From the NCBI GenBank assembly GCA_025700225.1, contig GCA_025700225.1_4339.1: a stretch of 44,937 nucleotides of DNA. One strand, 5' to 3'. How positions within the stretch are numbered: position 1 is the first letter of the stretch; every line of letters begins with the position of its first letter. Made by a program: the position numbers and the translations under genes. Shown piece by piece: positions 12,375 to 17,997 of the stretch. This DNA is from a phage. The notes beneath the pieces are model-generated. The model made no database searches and was not told the origin of the DNA. It was given only the letters and a program-made list of their open reading frames with translations.

Positions 12375-12518
12375 ATGATTTTCTGTAAGCACGTATACCG
12401 CTATATAAAACCGCTTCCGTGGTACGCGGATGAGTACCGGCATGTGTGGATTTGCCGTGATTGTATGAAAATAAGATTCAGCGAAACGAAGGCACTGGAT
12501 TTAAGGAAAAAGAAATGA
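12375..12518 (+). CDS. small basic hypothetical protein (47 aa)
   Basis: ATG preceded by AAGGGTCGAAATA motif; stop overlaps DNA polymerase ATG (ATGA). Confidence 0.35.
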   Translation: MIFCKHVYRYIKPLPWYADEYRHVWICRDCMKIRFSETKALDLRKKK

Positions 12519-14698
12519 ACCGCTACTTATACTTAGACTTTGAAACCTTCTCCGAAGCCGATTTGAAGAAAGTCGGTTCTTATGCTTACGCCGAACATCC
12601 GACTACCGAAGTGCTTATCTGCACCTATGCCTTTGATGATGAACCGGTTCAGGTATGGGACTGCACTGACGGCAGCGATATGCCGGGAGATTTGCACCGC
12701 GCGTTACGCCGTCTGGTGAAGCCAAACAGCCGTATCAAGATGGTCTGGCACAACGGCTCAATGTTCGACCGCCTCATCATGAAGAACTGCTGGGGCTTTG
12801 ATATCCCGGTCAGCAATACCATCGATACGATGATTTGGGCGTTTCGTCACGCGCTGCCAGGTTCACTTGACGCATTGTGCGAAGTGCTGGGTGTATCCGC
12901 CGACAATGCGAAAGATAAACGCGGCAAGGCGCTGATTCAGCGTTTCTCAAAACCTACGCCGAAGAACTACAAAATCCGCCGCTACACCGCCGAAACACAC
13001 CCGGACGAGTGGGCGCTGTTCATCAAGTACGCCGTGAGCGACATCACCGCGATGCGTGAAGTCTTTCATAAGCTGCCGCGTTGGGGTAACTCCGAGTTCG
13101 AGGACCGCGTACTGGAACTGGACCAGTTAATCAATGACCGCGGGTTTAAGGTTGACGTTGCACTGGCGGAAGCCGCGATTGAAGCCGTAGAGAAACACAA
13201 GGCGCAGTTGCAGGAAGAAGCTCAGCGTAAATACGGCGGCTCACTTACCGGTAAAGACTTCCTGCCGATTCTGCGTGAACTGGCTCCTGCGCATCGCATA
13301 CACAACGCGCAGAAGTCGACGCTTAACGACCTGCTGGCGGACGAGGATTTACCGGACGACGCGCGCACGATTATCGAAATGCGCCTCGGGGCTGCGTCTA
13401 CCGCGTCAACGAAATATAACCCGCTGCTGTTAGGTCGCTCGTCGGACGACCGCCGCCGCGGTTGCATCCAGTACGGCGGAGCTAAGCGTACATTACGATT
13501 CGCCGGTAAAGGCTTCCAGCCGCAGAACCTGGCGCGCGGGTACTATCATGACGATGAGCTGGATAAAGGGATTTCTGCGTTGCTGAAAGGACGTGCTCAT
13601 CGTCGGTTTGATGTAGCCAAGCTAACGGCGTCAACAGTGCGTAGCTGCATCATCCCGGAAGCCGGGCATAAGTTTGTTGTTGCCGATTACTCTAACGTGG
13701 AAGGCCGTGGCCTGGCGTGGTTGGCGGGCGAAGAAACCGCGCTTGATACGTTCCGCGCCGGGCTGGATATTTACTGCGTAACGGCTGGCAAGATGTTTGG
13801 CCTGGAACCAGATTACATTAAGAAAGAACGTAAAGACTTACGCCAGATTGGTAAAGCCTGCGAATTGGGCCTTGGGTACGCTGGGGGTGTCGGGGCTTTC
13901 GTTCAGTTCGCCAAGAACCTCGGCCTTGACCTCGTAGACATGGCTAAGACAATGGCGGGTACATTCCCCGACCATATCTGGGCCGCTACGGCACGGGGTT
14001 ACGAGTGGGCTCGTATTCAGGAAGCTAAGCGCCCCCCGCGTCCGGGTGAAAAGGACGACAGACCATCATATATCCTTGATAAGAAAGTCTGGCGTACATG
14101 CGACGCGATTAAGCGTATGTGGCGTGAGTCTCACCCGGAAACAGTAGCTTTCTGGCGAGATATTGAAGACGCGGCTATGGCAGCTATCCGCAATCCAGGT
14201 AAAGAGTTCACCGCAGGGCCGCGCGGTGTTAAGTTTTCGCGTAACGTAGAAACAGACAACAACGGCAACAAAGTCGCCGGTTGGTGGCTGCGCATGACGT
14301 TGCCGTCCGGTCGCGTTATGTCTTACCCGGGTGTAGGATTGAGCGTGTCGAAAGAGACAGACGAAGACGGGAAGGTGTCTACTAACGTGCGCATCAAGTA
14401 CCAGGGTGAAAACCAGTTAACCCGTCAGTGGGGCTTCCAGTACACCTACTCCGGTAAACTCGTGGAAAACTGTACGCAGGCGCTGTGCCGTGATTTGCTG
14501 GCCAATGCGCTGCTGAACGTAGAGGCAAACGGCTACCCGATTGTACTTCACGTACACGATGAGATTATCTGCGAGACGCCAGATTTACCGGAATACAATG
14601 TCACAGAGCTTGAGCGGTTGATGTGTTCGCTGCCTGAGTGGGCTGAGGGGTTCCCTCTTGTGGCAGAAGGTGCGGAGATGAAGCGTTATGCTAAGTAA
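12515..14698 (+). CDS. family A DNA polymerase with N-terminal 3'-5' exonuclease domain
   Basis: about 727 aa; DnaQ-like Exo I motif YLDFETFS; polymerase motifs C-terminal (VHDEIICE); start taken at ATG 12515 with AAGGA RBS (track ORF begins at 12461). Confidence 0.88.
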   Translation: MNRYLYLDFETFSEADLKKVGSYAYAEHPTTEVLICTYAFDDEPVQVWDCTDGSDMPGDLHRALRRLVKPNSRIKMVWHNGSMFDRLIMKNCWGFDIPVSNTIDTMIWAFRHALPGSLDALCEVLGVSADNAKDKRGKALIQRFSKPTPKNYKIRRYTAETHPDEWALFIKYAVSDITAMREVFHKLPRWGNSEFEDRVLELDQLINDRGFKVDVALAEAAIEAVEKHKAQLQEEAQRKYGGSLTGKDFLPILRELAPAHRIHNAQKSTLNDLLADEDLPDDARTIIEMRLGAASTASTKYNPLLLGRSSDDRRRGCIQYGGAKRTLRFAGKGFQPQNLARGYYHDDELDKGISALLKGRAHRRFDVAKLTASTVRSCIIPEAGHKFVVADYSNVEGRGLAWLAGEETALDTFRAGLDIYCVTAGKMFGLEPDYIKKERKDLRQIGKACELGLGYAGGVGAFVQFAKNLGLDLVDMAKTMAGTFPDHIWAATARGYEWARIQEAKRPPRPGEKDDRPSYILDKKVWRTCDAIKRMWRESHPETVAFWRDIEDAAMAAIRNPGKEFTAGPRGVKFSRNVETDNNGNKVAGWWLRMTLPSGRVMSYPGVGLSVSKETDEDGKVSTNVRIKYQGENQLTRQWGFQYTYSGKLVENCTQALCRDLLANALLNVEANGYPIVLHVHDEIICETPDLPEYNVTELERLMCSLPEWAEGFPLVAEGAEMKRYAK

Positions 14699-14905: not shown

Positions 14906-15054
14906 CAATGTTTGTATTTTGGACGATAGTAACCATGCTCGCACTGTTACTCGGTGCAGGAATAGCCGCGGTGTTCTGTTATGGCCTGTTCTTTAAGTTT
15001 GTCGGTGTTGCCGTTCTAGGAGGGGCTTTCCTTACTTGGGTTCTGCGATCATGA
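14902..15054 (+). CDS. tiny membrane protein (50 aa)
   Basis: hydrophobic throughout; ATGA-chained to the VRR-NUC gene. Confidence 0.25.
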   Translation: MTMFVFWTIVTMLALLLGAGIAAVFCYGLFFKFVGVAVLGGAFLTWVLRS

Positions 15055-15335
15055 CCCCGGAAGGCAAAATACAGAAATACGCGAAAGAGCGATTCGAGGC
15101 CCTCGGAGGCCTCGTTAGAAAATTGTCGTACGAAAATAGAGTAGGCGCCCCCGACCTGTTAGTAATCCTCCCCGGCGGCATCATCTGGTTCGTCGAGGTG
15201 AAGAAAGACGAAAATACGAAGCCAGACCCGCACCAGCTACGTGAGCACGAACGGCTGCGTAAACGCGGTGCAAATGTTTTTGTCGTTGGCTCGTTTAAAC
15301 AGGTTGACGACCTAATAGCAAACTATTATAGTTAG
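15051..15335 (+). CDS. VRR-NUC domain nuclease (PD-(D/E)XK)
   Basis: about 94 aa; GAPDLLVILPGG...FVEVKKDE carries the D...EVK signature; frequent partner of SNF2 helicases in phages. Confidence 0.75.
   Translation: MTPEGKIQKYAKERFEALGGLVRKLSYENRVGAPDLLVILPGGIIWFVEVKKDENTKPDPHQLREHERLRKRGANVFVVGSFKQVDDLIANYYS
15304..15332 (+). promoter_or_regulatory. consensus-like sigma70 promoter with perfect palindrome TAATAG-N4-CTATTA
   Basis: TTGACG-N17-TATAGT inside the 3' end of the VRR-NUC gene, 35 nt upstream of the next gene. Confidence 0.55.
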
Positions 15336-15365
15336 TCCTACACCAACAATATAAGGAATTGATAA

Positions 15366-15557
15366 ATGAAACACGAATATGACCGCAAGCCCGCACGTGA
15401 CATCGTACCTGGGGACATGATTTTCAACGTTAAGACGCGCCAGCCTGTTGCCGTTGATACCGTGTTCGTCGAGTCGAACGGTAAACTGGTTATCGAGGAC
15501 GTAACAGGTAACGTTACGGCGTTCGGGCGTAAAGAACTGGTGCTGGTGGCAAAATGA
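15366..15557 (+). CDS. hypothetical protein
   Basis: 63-aa ORF with RBS AAGGA. Confidence 0.5.
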   Translation: MKHEYDRKPARDIVPGDMIFNVKTRQPVAVDTVFVESNGKLVIEDVTGNVTAFGRKELVLVAK

Positions 15558-16237
15558 TTGTCTGGTCATTGTTTGACGGTTCGGGCCTTATGGCCCAACC
15601 GTGGGCAGAAGCGGGCCATACTTGCTATTGTTTCAACTACGACGGTGCCGACCACGGAGACTACGCACGATTGGGCGCAAAAGTTGAACATGAAAATATC
15701 CACTATATAAACGCGTGGATTGATAATAAATTCGACTTCGACGTTGCTCCTGATATTATTTTCGCGTTCCCTCCGTGCACAGATTTAGCCGTTAGCGGCG
15801 CGGCTCATTTCGAAACGAAGCGGAAGAAGAATCCGACGTTCCAGGTAGAGGCTGTGATTACATGCAAAGTGGCGGCGCGTCTGGCTAAAAAGTACAACGT
15901 ACCTTATATGATTGAGAACCCGGTTAGTGTTCTTTCGTCTCTATGGCGTAAGCCCGACTACGTGTTCAATCCGTACGAATACGGCGGGTATTTACCGGAA
16001 GACGACACGCATCCAATGTTCCCTGAATACATAAAACCTCGGGACGCGTACCCTAAGAAGACATGTATTTGGGCCGGTAACGGTTTTGTTATGCCCGTTA
16101 AATCATGTGTTGCCGTTGGTGATGGGTACGCAGACCAACACAATAAATTGGGCGGTAAATCAGTGCGGACAAAAACAATCCGCAGCCTTACTCCGCGGGG
16201 TTTCGCAAAAGCAGTTTACGAGGCAAATCATGTCTAA
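15554..16237 (+). CDS. minimal DNA (cytosine-5) methyltransferase-like protein
   Basis: 227 aa; motif I LFDGSG, motif IV-like FPPCTD (catalytic Pro-Cys), motif VI-like ENP, C-terminal RSLTPRGF; too short for a normal target-recognition domain. Confidence 0.65.
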   Translation: MIVWSLFDGSGLMAQPWAEAGHTCYCFNYDGADHGDYARLGAKVEHENIHYINAWIDNKFDFDVAPDIIFAFPPCTDLAVSGAAHFETKRKKNPTFQVEAVITCKVAARLAKKYNVPYMIENPVSVLSSLWRKPDYVFNPYEYGGYLPEDDTHPMFPEYIKPRDAYPKKTCIWAGNGFVMPVKSCVAVGDGYADQHNKLGGKSVRTKTIRSLTPRGFAKAVYEANHV

Positions 16238-17654
16238 GTTTCAAAGGCGCGAATACCAGAAGCTCATGACTTCGTTCATGTTGCGACACCATCGCTGCAA
16301 CATATGGGCAAGCATGGGTGCCGGGAAGACTGGCAGCGTACTGTGGACGTTAAACCGCCTGTTCCGCAACGGGCAACTTACGGACGACGACCGCGTGTTA
16401 ATACTCGCCCCATTACGCGTTGCATCAGGCACGTGGCCCGCCGAACAAACTAAATGGGGTTTCCCGTGTCTGCGTGTCGTAGATGCGACCGGTTCAGAGA
16501 AGCGCCGTATAGCGGCGCTGGAGTCTGACGCCAACGTGGTGTGCACTAACTACGAAGTTATCGAATGGCTGATCGACTATTACGGCAAAGACGACTGGCC
16601 TTTCACTGTTATCGTTGCCGATGAAAGCACGAAGCTCAAATCGTTCCGTAGCCGTTCTGGTGGCAGCAAGCGGGCAAAGGCGCTCAGTAAGGTCGCGTTT
16701 GGTAAGGTTAAGCGTTTCATTAACCTGACAGGTACACCGTCGCCAAACGGTCTCAAAGACCTGTGGGGCCAGAACTGGTTTATAGACGCGGGCGAGCGCC
16801 TGGGGTCTTCATATACAGCATTCACCGACCGCTGGTTTAACTCAGTGCAGAAAGGAAAATCAGCAATGGCGCGCGAGTATCATGCGCGCCCGGGCGCAGA
16901 TAACGAGATTCACCAGAAGATGAAGGACATTAGTCTCACGATTGACGCTGCCGAGTGGTTTGGGTGTGAAGCGCCGATTATTGTACCGGTTGAAATCGAC
17001 CTGCCGAAGAAAGCGCGCCAGGCGTACATCGATATGGAGGAGAAGTTATTCGCGGAACTGGAGAGCGGAGAAGTTGAAGCGGCTAACGCTGCGGCGAAGA
17101 CGTCGAAATGTTTGCAGATTGCATCCGGTGCTGTATATGTGTCAGGGCCAGACGGCGAAGCAACGAAAGACTGGGAGAAAGTGCACGACACGAAACTGGA
17201 TGCGCTGGAGTCAATTGTTGAGGAGTTGCAGGGTGCGCCGTTACTGGTGGCCTATCAGTTCAAGCACGAACTTGAGCGCATCCTTAAGCGATTCCCGCAG
17301 GCGCAGGCGTTCGCAAAAGGCTCTAAGGGTAATAAGCAGATGGAGGCGTGGAACCGTGGTGAAATCGAGATTTTGTGTGTGCATCCTGCGTCAGCTGGCC
17401 ACGGCCTCAATTTACAGGACGGCGGGCACCATCTGGCGTTCATTTCACAAGGCTGGAACCTTGAGCACTATTTACAGGTTGTCGAGCGTATAGGCCCGGT
17501 ACGCCAGAAGCAGGCAGGCCACGAGCGACCGGTGTTCCTGTATCACATCGTTGCTAAAGACACGCTGGACGAGGTTGTTGCCGCGCGTACAGACGAGAAG
17601 AAATCGGTCCAGGAAGAGTTGCTTAATTACATGAGGAGACGAGGTAAGAAATGA
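16230..17654 (+). CDS. SNF2-family helicase
   Basis: about 474 aa; Walker A ASMGAGKTGS, DExx box IVADESTKLK, helicase C region; start at ATG 16230 overlapping the methyltransferase-like stop. Confidence 0.85.
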   Translation: MSKFQRREYQKLMTSFMLRHHRCNIWASMGAGKTGSVLWTLNRLFRNGQLTDDDRVLILAPLRVASGTWPAEQTKWGFPCLRVVDATGSEKRRIAALESDANVVCTNYEVIEWLIDYYGKDDWPFTVIVADESTKLKSFRSRSGGSKRAKALSKVAFGKVKRFINLTGTPSPNGLKDLWGQNWFIDAGERLGSSYTAFTDRWFNSVQKGKSAMAREYHARPGADNEIHQKMKDISLTIDAAEWFGCEAPIIVPVEIDLPKKARQAYIDMEEKLFAELESGEVEAANAAAKTSKCLQIASGAVYVSGPDGEATKDWEKVHDTKLDALESIVEELQGAPLLVAYQFKHELERILKRFPQAQAFAKGSKGNKQMEAWNRGEIEILCVHPASAGHGLNLQDGGHHLAFISQGWNLEHYLQVVERIGPVRQKQAGHERPVFLYHIVAKDTLDEVVAARTDEKKSVQEELLNYMRRRGKK

Positions 17655-17830
17655 AACTTAATACAGCGTTAACAGTTTTGTGGCTATTCTGCCGAGTGTT
17701 GCCTGGGTCAGTATTATTATTGTGCGGTATCTTGGACGAAAAAACATTTGATGCGGGCTTGATGGTGGGTGCAGGAATGATGTTGTTGGCTGCGGGCATT
17801 GCAGAATTGTATAAGGATTTTAAGAAATGA
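17651..17830 (+). CDS. small membrane protein (59 aa)
   Basis: ATGA-coupled to SNF2 stop; two hydrophobic segments. Confidence 0.35.
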   Translation: MKLNTALTVLWLFCRVLPGSVLLLCGILDEKTFDAGLMVGAGMMLLAAGIAELYKDFKK

Positions 17831-17964
17831 ATATCATAGCTCCGATTCCGGCATTGCAAAAACGTATCAAGGAACTCGAAGAAGAGGTTCTACGACTACG
17901 ACAGCAAAGAGACGCTGCTAATGCGCAACTGGCGTTTGTACTGGAGAAGTTATCAGAAGAGTAG
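17827..17964 (+). CDS. small coiled-coil protein (45 aa)
   Basis: ATGA-coupled; heptad-like KELEEEVLRLRQQRDAANAQLAFVLEKL. Confidence 0.35.
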   Translation: MNIIAPIPALQKRIKELEEEVLRLRQQRDAANAQLAFVLEKLSEE

Positions 17965-17966
17965 AG

Positions 17967-17997
17967 AAAAGGCCCCGTTTGGGGCCTTATTTTTTTT
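17967..17997. terminator. bidirectional intrinsic terminator at the convergent junction
   Basis: stem aaggcccc/ggggcctt followed by T8 on plus; placed between the end of the rightward operon and the tail-fibre stop. Confidence 0.75.

Follow-up and report, generated by a model that had tools for sequence, protein, structure and literature searches.

The stretch of phage DNA analysed here (GenBank assembly GCA_025700225.1, contig GCA_025700225.1_4339.1; 44,937 nucleotides, hereafter the window) encodes at positions 15554-16237 a protein of 227 amino acids (aa), which is most probably a free-standing, S-adenosylmethionine (AdoMet)-dependent short Dcm-like cytosine-C5 methyltransferase, carried as an accessory gene in a replication operon and not as a component of a helicase/nuclease machine. 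The original prediction had grouped this gene with those of a VRR-NUC nuclease, a 63-aa protein and an SNF2 helicase into one coupled unit, and had proposed either promiscuous methylation or a non-methylating role for its product. For annotation, the gene can be regarded as a genuine orphan C5 methyltransferase of a known short phage family, and the apparent nuclease-methyltransferase-helicase unit as an effect of operon position rather than a new DNA-modification machine. Databases already identify the gene as a C5 methyltransferase, with the annotation 'DNA cytosine methyltransferase' for hz69, SZH-1 and skrot, and experiments on a homologue back this identification. For the most part the finding is thus ordinary, and its residual interest, which is modest, lies in the target specificity and in a recognition segment that occurs as two alleles. 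The gene and the elements of its product are located as follows.

15554-16237, plus strand: short Dcm-like DNA cytosine-C5 methyltransferase (predicted), 227 aa, accessory cassette.
15572-15586, plus strand: motif I, F7-D-G9-S-G11 (AdoMet loop), aligned by hhalign at low confidence with F18-x-G-x-G of M.HhaI.
15770-15784, plus strand: motif IV, P73-P74-C75-T-D with the predicted catalytic Cys, aligned with PC81 of M.HhaI.
15914-15922, plus strand: motif VI, E121-N-P, aligned with ENV 119-121 of M.HhaI.
16022-16153, plus strand: variable segment of the protein (residues 157-200), lying where a target-recognition domain would be expected, flanking the conserved K168-K169-T170 (motif VIII-like).
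16181-16204, plus strand: C-terminal motif IX-like R210-S-L-T-P-R-G216-F, 10 residues before the protein end.

The motifs named in the original prediction were all present, namely FDGSG (residues 7-11), PPCTD (73-77), ENP (121-123) and RSLTPRGF (210-217), and they are conserved in close homologues, among which motif I is invariant. C75 was invariant in both a 30-sequence and a 76-sequence alignment, E121 and P123 were invariant across the 76 diverse family members, and R210, P214 and G216 were at least 90% conserved in the wider family. The four residues C75, E121, K168 and K169 were invariant in close homologues and, in a set of 100 representatives with 33-62% identity, conserved to at least 95%. 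PHROG 757 ('DNA methyltransferase') matched residues 1-226 with an E-value of 1.2e-86. Clustering of the homologues at 90% identity gave 7173 clusters and at 50% identity 2035 representatives, typically of 210-260 aa. Homologues were found in 1523 phage records, with conservation over the full length in 1476, and the phages carrying the family include Dhillonvirus, Hanrivervirus, Webervirus, Vequintavirus, T4-like myoviruses and phages of Roseobacter, Shewanella and Arthrobacter. The shortfall of about 100 residues that had been pointed out was borne out, the protein being exactly 100 aa shorter than M.HhaI (327 aa). When the family length was judged on the best 150 representatives, most full-length ones had 210-260 aa and the shorter entries were fragments; as far as the sequences tell, shortness characterizes the whole family and does not result from a truncation. 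The gene is also an orphan, as had been supposed: no cognate restriction enzyme lies beside it, and the sole nearby nuclease, VRR-NUC, persists in Salmonella phage SF5, which lacks the methyltransferase.

The activity of the family has been demonstrated with a homologue. Phage KarlJaspers (Bas06, Hanrivervirus) of the BASEL collection annotates a 711-bp 'Dcm-like C5 cytosine methyltransferase' gene (bas06_0055), whose 236-aa product is 56% identical to the 227-aa protein over the full length (E 8e-96). The genome of phage K42 is 95.4% identical to that of KarlJaspers, and the K42 orthologue of the dcm-like gene has been studied in the context of retron Ec86 (bioRxiv 10.1101/2023.08.16.553469). 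In that study, mutants escaping retron Ec86 mapped to the 711-bp gene, and K42 Dcm expressed alone from a plasmid was toxic when the retron was present. The enzyme raised 5-methylcytosine (5mC) on the multicopy single-stranded DNA (msDNA) of retron Ec86, as detected by mass spectrometry after liquid chromatography (LC-MS) with a product matching the 5mC standard, and this activity was lost in a C82A/E128A/K175A/K176A quadruple mutant (10.1101/2023.08.16.553469). Later papers cite this work as 'DNA methylation activates retron Ec86 filaments'. In our alignment, C82, E128, K175 and K176 of K42 Dcm correspond to C75, E121, K168 and K169 of the 227-aa protein, which by analogy with the K42 homologue would likewise form 5mC. 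Both proteins share family and architecture, and both are orphan enzymes of small enterobacterial siphoviruses. Unlike in the window, no SNF2, VRR-NUC or PolA gene lies beside the KarlJaspers gene; a helicase near it was considered as SNF2-like and rejected because it is unrelated to the helicase of the window.

Structure comparison agreed with the assignment. An AlphaFold2 model of the 227-aa protein had a predicted local distance difference test score (pLDDT) of 85.9, and its best Foldseek matches were DNMT3A and DNMT3B; the authors of the K42 study likewise found DNMT3A as a structural match (10.1101/2023.08.16.553469). The strand order of the model is that expected for the C5-methyltransferase core: beta1 is followed by F7-x-G9-x-G11, beta2 ends at N28, beta4 is followed by P73-P74-C75, beta5 carries E121-N-P, and a short strand and a conserved loop precede the strand starting from K168-K169-T170. 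Highly conserved residues of this loop are P140, G144, D151, P154, D164 and Y166. The placement of Lys168-Lys169 at the canonical motif VIII strand is taken from the DNMT3A superposition of the K42 authors (10.1101/2023.08.16.553469). The RSLTPRGF region is modelled as helices 204-211 and 215-225 and may, from its sequence, be the equivalent of the canonical motifs IX/X; motifs IX and X may have been fused, or motif X may have been lost. Of the two comparisons proposed for the assignment, the structural one supported it; in the other, the protein stayed below the threshold of the Pfam PF00145 profile.

The protein differs from canonical enzymes in several respects. Compared with M.HhaI and other PF00145 enzymes it is 100 aa shorter, and a segment of ~40 aa appears to stand in the place of a recognition domain of ~85 aa in M.HhaI. 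Judged from the model and the low-confidence hhalign alignment, it seems to lack the helix between motif VI and the next strand and to have a 20-residue insertion before the motif VIII-like KKT, and its C-terminus ends right after the motif IX-like RSLTPRGF. The catalytic domains of DNMT3A and DNMT3B are only 13-17% identical to it in sequence; they have ~280 aa, form oligomers with DNMT3L, and contain the canonical motif VIII Arg-x-Arg and motif X.

By analogy with canonical C5 methyltransferases, the target cytosine would be flipped out of the helix, Cys75 of the Pro-Cys dipeptide (motif IV) would attack C6, and Glu121 of ENP (motif VI) would protonate N3. Lys168 and Lys169 would stand in for the canonical motif VIII Arg-x-Arg, F7-x-G9-x-G11 would bind AdoMet, and residues ~157-200 would act as a miniature target-recognition element. 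Since the gene would be transcribed with the early/middle replication genes, new phage DNA would be methylated at a specific short motif and would be protected from restriction enzymes sharing that motif. In return, the phage may become vulnerable to systems that sense foreign methylation, for instance retron Ec86 and, possibly, type IV restriction enzymes. For phage biology and phage therapy, a gene of this kind matters in that it can hide restriction sites and can also set off defences that sense methylation, retron Ec86 being one example.

To evaluate the coupling to the helicase and the nuclease, we searched 80 viral loci encoding relatives of the 227-aa protein for the neighbours present in the window. 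The order VRR-NUC, 63-aa gene, methyltransferase, SNF2 was found at 10 loci, all of the Guernseyvirinae type, and one further locus had the methyltransferase followed by SNF2. At 15 loci, mostly of the Dhillonvirus type (L031 being more divergent), SNF2 was followed by the methyltransferase, and PolA and VRR-NUC preceded them wherever the locus reached far enough upstream. No homologue of SNF2, VRR-NUC or PolA was found within 6 kb at ~54 of the 80 loci. The module was also absent within 6 kb from the closest relatives outside Guernseyvirinae (L014-L018, 70-73% identity), which indicates that the methyltransferase gene moves independently of the module. The surroundings of the family gene vary accordingly among other phages: it sits amid small early genes in Roseobacter phage CRP-2, adjoins another methylase in Arthrobacter phage Coral, and is flanked in Shewanella phage X14 by replication protein P and a Dam-like enzyme. 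Klebsiella phage Sushi has another annotated member of the family without SNF2 or VRR-NUC nearby.

Comparison within Guernseyvirinae located the gene in an insertion slot between the 63-aa gene and the SNF2 helicase gene (15557-16230 in the window, 1996/1993 in locus L088, 1985-2914 in L089 and 1289-1786 in L090). The region is shared by 454 records, of which no more than 50 reach a coverage of 80% or higher, and a protein with 80% or more identity to the 227-aa protein occurs in only 53 records. Salmonella phage SF5 keeps VRR-NUC (92%), the 63-aa gene (98%) and the helicase (92%); its 63-aa gene directly overlaps the helicase start with nothing between, and no methyltransferase of the short family was detected in the whole SF5 genome (best tblastn E 1.4). 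In Kagunavirus K1ind2, the slot is occupied by FDH15_gp32, a 309-aa canonical PF00145 enzyme (Pfam E 1.8e-16) without BLASTP similarity to the 227-aa protein. Its gene likewise immediately precedes that of the orthologous SNF2 helicase, PolA lying further upstream, and unlike the 227-aa protein the enzyme has a full canonical motif set (FFAGIGG, PPCQPFS, GNAIVP). In Salmonella phage vB_SenS_4FS1, an HNH endonuclease fills the slot. Since the slot is empty, swapped or HNH-filled in relatives, the comparison identifies the methyltransferase as an exchangeable accessory gene and the 63-aa gene and the nuclease as backbone genes. The position between the 63-aa gene and the helicase gene would thus be a slot for exchangeable accessory genes. 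Judged by its sequence, the K1ind2 enzyme is a non-orthologous replacement with the same predicted enzymatic function. That an unrelated C5 enzyme can take the place of the short one suggests that this slot favours cytosine-C5 methylation as such. The claim of one coupled unit was not supported by these comparisons, given the ~54 loci without the neighbours, the reversed order in the Dhillonvirus type, and SF5, where the module has no methyltransferase.

Two kinds of known systems were also considered and rejected. A Type II restriction-modification (RM) system was rejected because there is no cognate endonuclease and VRR-NUC is a backbone gene that is absent beside most family members. A system like DISARM, Dpd or Zorya was rejected on the scores of the helicase, on the context of a phage replication operon and on the lack of other marker genes; the helicase scored 28.9 bits against NCBIfam DrmD (cut-off 950) and 13.8 bits against ZorD (cut-off 1500), and 49.9 and 44 bits against PADLOC ZorD and DpdE, respectively.

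The original prediction held that the short protein left almost no room for target recognition. This was overstated, since a discrete variable segment, residues 157-200, fills the position of the target-recognition domain. The segment was compared among 227-aa Guernseyvirinae orthologues. The window protein carries allele A ('PEYIKPRDAYP ... GYADQHNK'), whereas 35 clusters carry allele B, marked by 'DNPGWAK' instead of 'GYADQHNK'. The window protein is 89-97% identical to the allele-B orthologues in residues 1-156 and 201-227 and 50-61% identical in residues 157-200, and both alleles recur in other, unrelated phage groups. Residues 157-200 look like a swapped mini specificity element, as read from the alignments. 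It is possible, but in our judgement rather doubtful, that the short family reads DNA through this cassette-like element and that at least two discrete alleles of it are shuffled between enzymes that are otherwise 89-97% identical and between unrelated phages. If this is true and each allele sets a different motif, it would be the smallest natural modular specificity element known for any C5 methyltransferase, and a 227-aa enzyme whose recognition element of 40 residues can be exchanged would offer engineers a useful minimal scaffold. The CCWGG motif assumed for the allele-B enzyme would then not hold for the allele-A protein of the window. Because the tested K42/KarlJaspers enzyme carries allele B, its target motif cannot be transferred to the enzyme of the window, and the two specificities may differ. 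Counts of CCWGG and other motifs gave no usable target signal, the CCWGG ratios being 0.70 in the window, 0.88 in the methyltransferase-less SF5 and 1.03 in KarlJaspers. Literature searches yielded no methylome or restriction-digest data on Guernseyvirinae, Dhillonvirus or Webervirus DNA that bear on the enzyme.

Several observations weigh against the identification of the 227-aa protein as a free-standing C5 methyltransferase. Its PF00145 score was 16.3 bits, below the cut-off of 22, with only motifs I-IV aligned, and a PF00145 E-value of 0.01 was reached by only 3 of 76 family members. Searches of the PDB chain sequences with the protein and with two family profiles (E up to 10) returned no methyltransferase, and the methyltransferase link was thus made only by structure comparison. 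Alignment of the family profiles with M.HhaI by hhalign, with or without a profile of its relatives, was not significant (E 0.009-0.27, probability <5%); the M.HhaI sequence was verified against 10mh, and the search for M.HhaI homologues returned only sequences at least 71% identical. These low-confidence alignments agreed with one another only over motifs I, IV and VI and an N-x-x-[DE]-Y-G element, in which 'NPYEYGG' is paired with 'NALDYGI' of M.HhaI, and they gave no reliable alignment for the half of the protein with the motif VIII- and IX-like elements. NCBIfam had no model for the protein, and PADLOC gave only a 13-bit match to an orphan methyltransferase. Position 28 is Asn in the enterobacterial subfamily versus Asp in 92% of the wider family, and the first Gly of motif I (Gly9 in the enterobacterial subfamily) is not conserved in the wider family, where it is usually Tyr, Arg, Phe or Glu. 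With Asn28 in place of the acidic motif II residue and no motif X discernible as a separate element, the enzyme may bind its cofactor in a pocket unlike that of canonical C5 methyltransferases. The evidence of activity comes only from a homologue with the other allele of segment 157-200, and the CCWGG specificity of that homologue was only assumed from E. coli Dcm, its support being limited to the loss of defence on changing the CCTGG of the msDNA (10.1101/2023.08.16.553469). Finally, the gene adjoins SNF2 in two phage groups, and in the window it is translationally coupled on both sides.

This last point is the starting point for the idea that the methyltransferase-like protein, the SNF2 motor and VRR-NUC act as one machine, in which the protein would be a base-flipping or recognition subunit or the helicase would open the DNA. 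The overlap of the gene with both neighbours fits this idea, as does the recurrence of SNF2 adjacency at 26 of the 80 loci (Guernseyvirinae type, Dhillonvirus type and two others). However, the methyltransferase precedes the helicase in one group and follows it in the other, the ~54 loci and many other phage groups have neither SNF2 nor VRR-NUC nearby, and the relatives at 70-73% identity lack the module. The same module functions in SF5 without a methyltransferase gene, the slot can hold an unrelated C5 methyltransferase or an HNH endonuclease, and plasmid-borne K42 Dcm is active on its own. We consider one machine very improbable. A non-methylating or base-flipping role is likewise not supported, as a member of the family of the 56%-identical homologue makes 5mC by LC-MS in dependence on the conserved Cys, Glu and Lys-Lys. 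The divergent motifs on the cofactor side (Asn28, the unconserved first Gly of motif I, no clear motif X) could also point to the transfer of a group other than methyl, for example carboxymethyl from carboxy-S-adenosylmethionine (Cx-SAM) as the first step of a hypermodification. Alternatively, the substrate could be single-stranded DNA, or RNA as for DNMT2; msDNA, on which the homologue is documented to act, is a hairpin carried by a DNA-RNA hybrid. There is little to recommend these possibilities given that the LC-MS product of the K42 homologue matched the 5mC standard and that no TET-like, glycosyltransferase or aminotransferase genes adjoin the methyltransferase in the window.

A promiscuous enzyme, or one recognizing 1-2 bases, would methylate the phage DNA heavily and would be explained by a minimal recognition element. 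The recognition segment has indeed only ~35-45 residues, the K42 authors note a toxicity on over-expression 'of Dcm itself' (10.1101/2023.08.16.553469), and the host Dcm in MG1655 gave no high 5mC on msDNA despite its CCTGG site. On the other hand, altering either C of the msDNA CCTGG abolished the triggering of the retron, and two sharply distinct alleles of residues 157-200 look like a specificity switch, which a non-specific enzyme would not need. Small siphoviruses in general and Kagunavirus isolates are reported to be highly sensitive to the RM systems tested in the BASEL studies (PMC11990801), which is only indirect evidence, the statement being made by phage group and not by carriage of this gene family. 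Because of this sensitivity, heavy non-specific methylation of the phage DNA is unlikely, and promiscuity as a whole appears unlikely to us as well. The protein could also be a degenerate, catalytically dead remnant that is kept as a DNA-binding protein or not used. Its length of 100 aa below M.HhaI, its sub-threshold Pfam score and the missing canonical motif X are in line with such a remnant, but 76 members at 33-62% identity show little or no variation in the catalytic Cys, Glu and Lys-Lys, the full length is conserved in 1476 phage records, and a homologue of the same length is active. We see next to no chance that the enzyme is dead. An active, free-standing C5 methyltransferase with a specific target is thus the explanation that we prefer.

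The genes and signals around the methyltransferase gene are located as follows.

15051-15335, plus strand: VRR-NUC / PD-(D/E)xK nuclease gene, 94 aa, with P34-D35 ... E49-V-K51.
15304-15332, plus strand: sigma-70-like promoter candidate TTGACG-17-TATAGT, inside the 3' end of the VRR-NUC coding sequence.
15366-15557, plus strand: gene of the 63-aa protein, PHROG 4879 (E 1e-46), a family of unknown function.
16230-17654, plus strand: SNF2-family ATPase/helicase, minimal, 474 aa, a backbone gene of the replication module.
17651-17964, plus strand: two small open reading frames (ORFs), 59 aa hydrophobic and 45 aa coiled-coil-like, with which the operon continues downstream of the helicase.
17969-17988, plus strand: intrinsic terminator closing the rightward operon, strong, with an 8-bp stem of 6 GC pairs and a T-run.

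Megablast showed ~87-90% nucleotide identity of the region to Escherichia phages AV104, hz69, SZH-1 and UTI-CM001, and by this similarity the region and its surroundings are of the Guernseyvirinae siphovirus type (Kagunavirus/Jerseyvirus). The four genes stand at the 3' end of a rightward replication operon, which runs from a primase/helicase through a RecB-like nuclease, an SSB-like protein, PolA (12461-14698) and small ORFs to VRR-NUC, and from there through the 63-aa gene, the 227-aa gene, the SNF2 helicase gene and two small ORFs to the terminator. The four ORFs were confirmed at 15051-15335 (94 aa), 15366-15557 (63 aa), 15554-16237 (227 aa) and 16230-17654 (474 aa). They had been described as overlapping start to stop throughout; this applies to two of the three junctions (an ATGA overlap between the 63-aa and 227-aa genes and an 8-nucleotide overlap between the 227-aa and helicase genes), whereas VRR-NUC and the 63-aa gene are separated by a gap of 30 nucleotides. 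Positions 15051 and 17654 are not the limits of the operon, since the overlaps run on past both ends: the VRR-NUC start overlaps an upstream 53-aa ORF by ATGA, and the helicase gene overlaps the 59-aa ORF by ATGA at its stop, followed by the 45-aa ORF and the terminator.

VRR-NUC scored below the cut-off of Pfam PF08774 (19.4 bits versus 23.8, E 0.0012). Its identity was nevertheless upheld by matches to PHROG 93 'endonuclease' (5e-33) and PHROG 5702 'Holliday junction resolvase' (1e-20) and by the PD...E-x-K motif. The gene belongs to the backbone of the PolA-VRR-NUC-SNF2 replication module and is not a partner of the methyltransferase. The SNF2 identity of the helicase was also confirmed (Pfam SNF2-rel_dom 4e-13; PHROG 62 'DNA helicase' 1.6e-168), with the motifs GAGKT at residues 30-34, DEST at 131-134, LTGTP at 166-170 and GHGLNL at 390-395. 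The 63-aa gene was present only at Guernseyvirinae-type loci, 10 of the 80 surveyed, and Pfam and NCBIfam searches with its product gave only insignificant matches, to P-type ATPase models. It is a backbone gene that is translationally coupled to whichever gene comes next, as it always lies directly 5' of, and overlaps, the gene upstream of or at the helicase start. At Dhillonvirus-type loci, a 77-aa ORF (4342-4575 in L047) with a similar 'KPGD-hydrophobic' motif directly precedes the SNF2 helicase, and both may represent a conserved small helicase-associated protein.

An internal promoter had been proposed at 15304-15332. The site has the top sigma-70-like score within 12-18.5 kb (10 of 12 matches), and a promoter there is plausible from its sequence. 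The number of such sites was no higher than in shuffled sequences (7 versus 5.4 +/- 2.4). The site is kept only where VRR-NUC abuts the 63-aa gene, and coding constraint confounds this conservation; it is absent in hz69, L010, L011 and L073. Some relatives have an additional ORF separating VRR-NUC from the 63-aa gene, and in these a GC-rich hairpin replaces the promoter candidate.

The 59-aa hydrophobic protein encoded after the helicase is probably a membrane protein. The region 3' of the helicase differs among relatives, and SF5 has a 171-aa Toprim-like protein there. In vB_SenS_4FS1, the DNA polymerase is annotated as intein-containing (L090 1-613), and the SNF2 helicase gene (L090 1783-4248) has 2466 bp versus 1425 bp in the window, which suggests an intein or another insertion. 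At Dhillonvirus-type loci, a Dam-like N6-adenine methyltransferase with an NPPY motif (7049-7582 in L047) is encoded two genes downstream of the short Dcm-like gene, so that the replication operon ends in a small cluster of these two methylase genes.

Motif counts showed further deviations. In KarlJaspers (L003, first 50 kb), CCSGG was strongly depleted (2 versus 11.7 expected), and CCWGG occurred 125 times versus 121 expected. GATC was nearly absent from the window (positions 1-44937), with 7 sites versus ~148 expected under a Markov model (ratio 0.05), and from SF5 (L091), with 11 versus 140. No Dam-like gene turned up in the examined part of the window. KarlJaspers, which encodes a Dam-like enzyme, had 269 GATC sites versus 270 expected.

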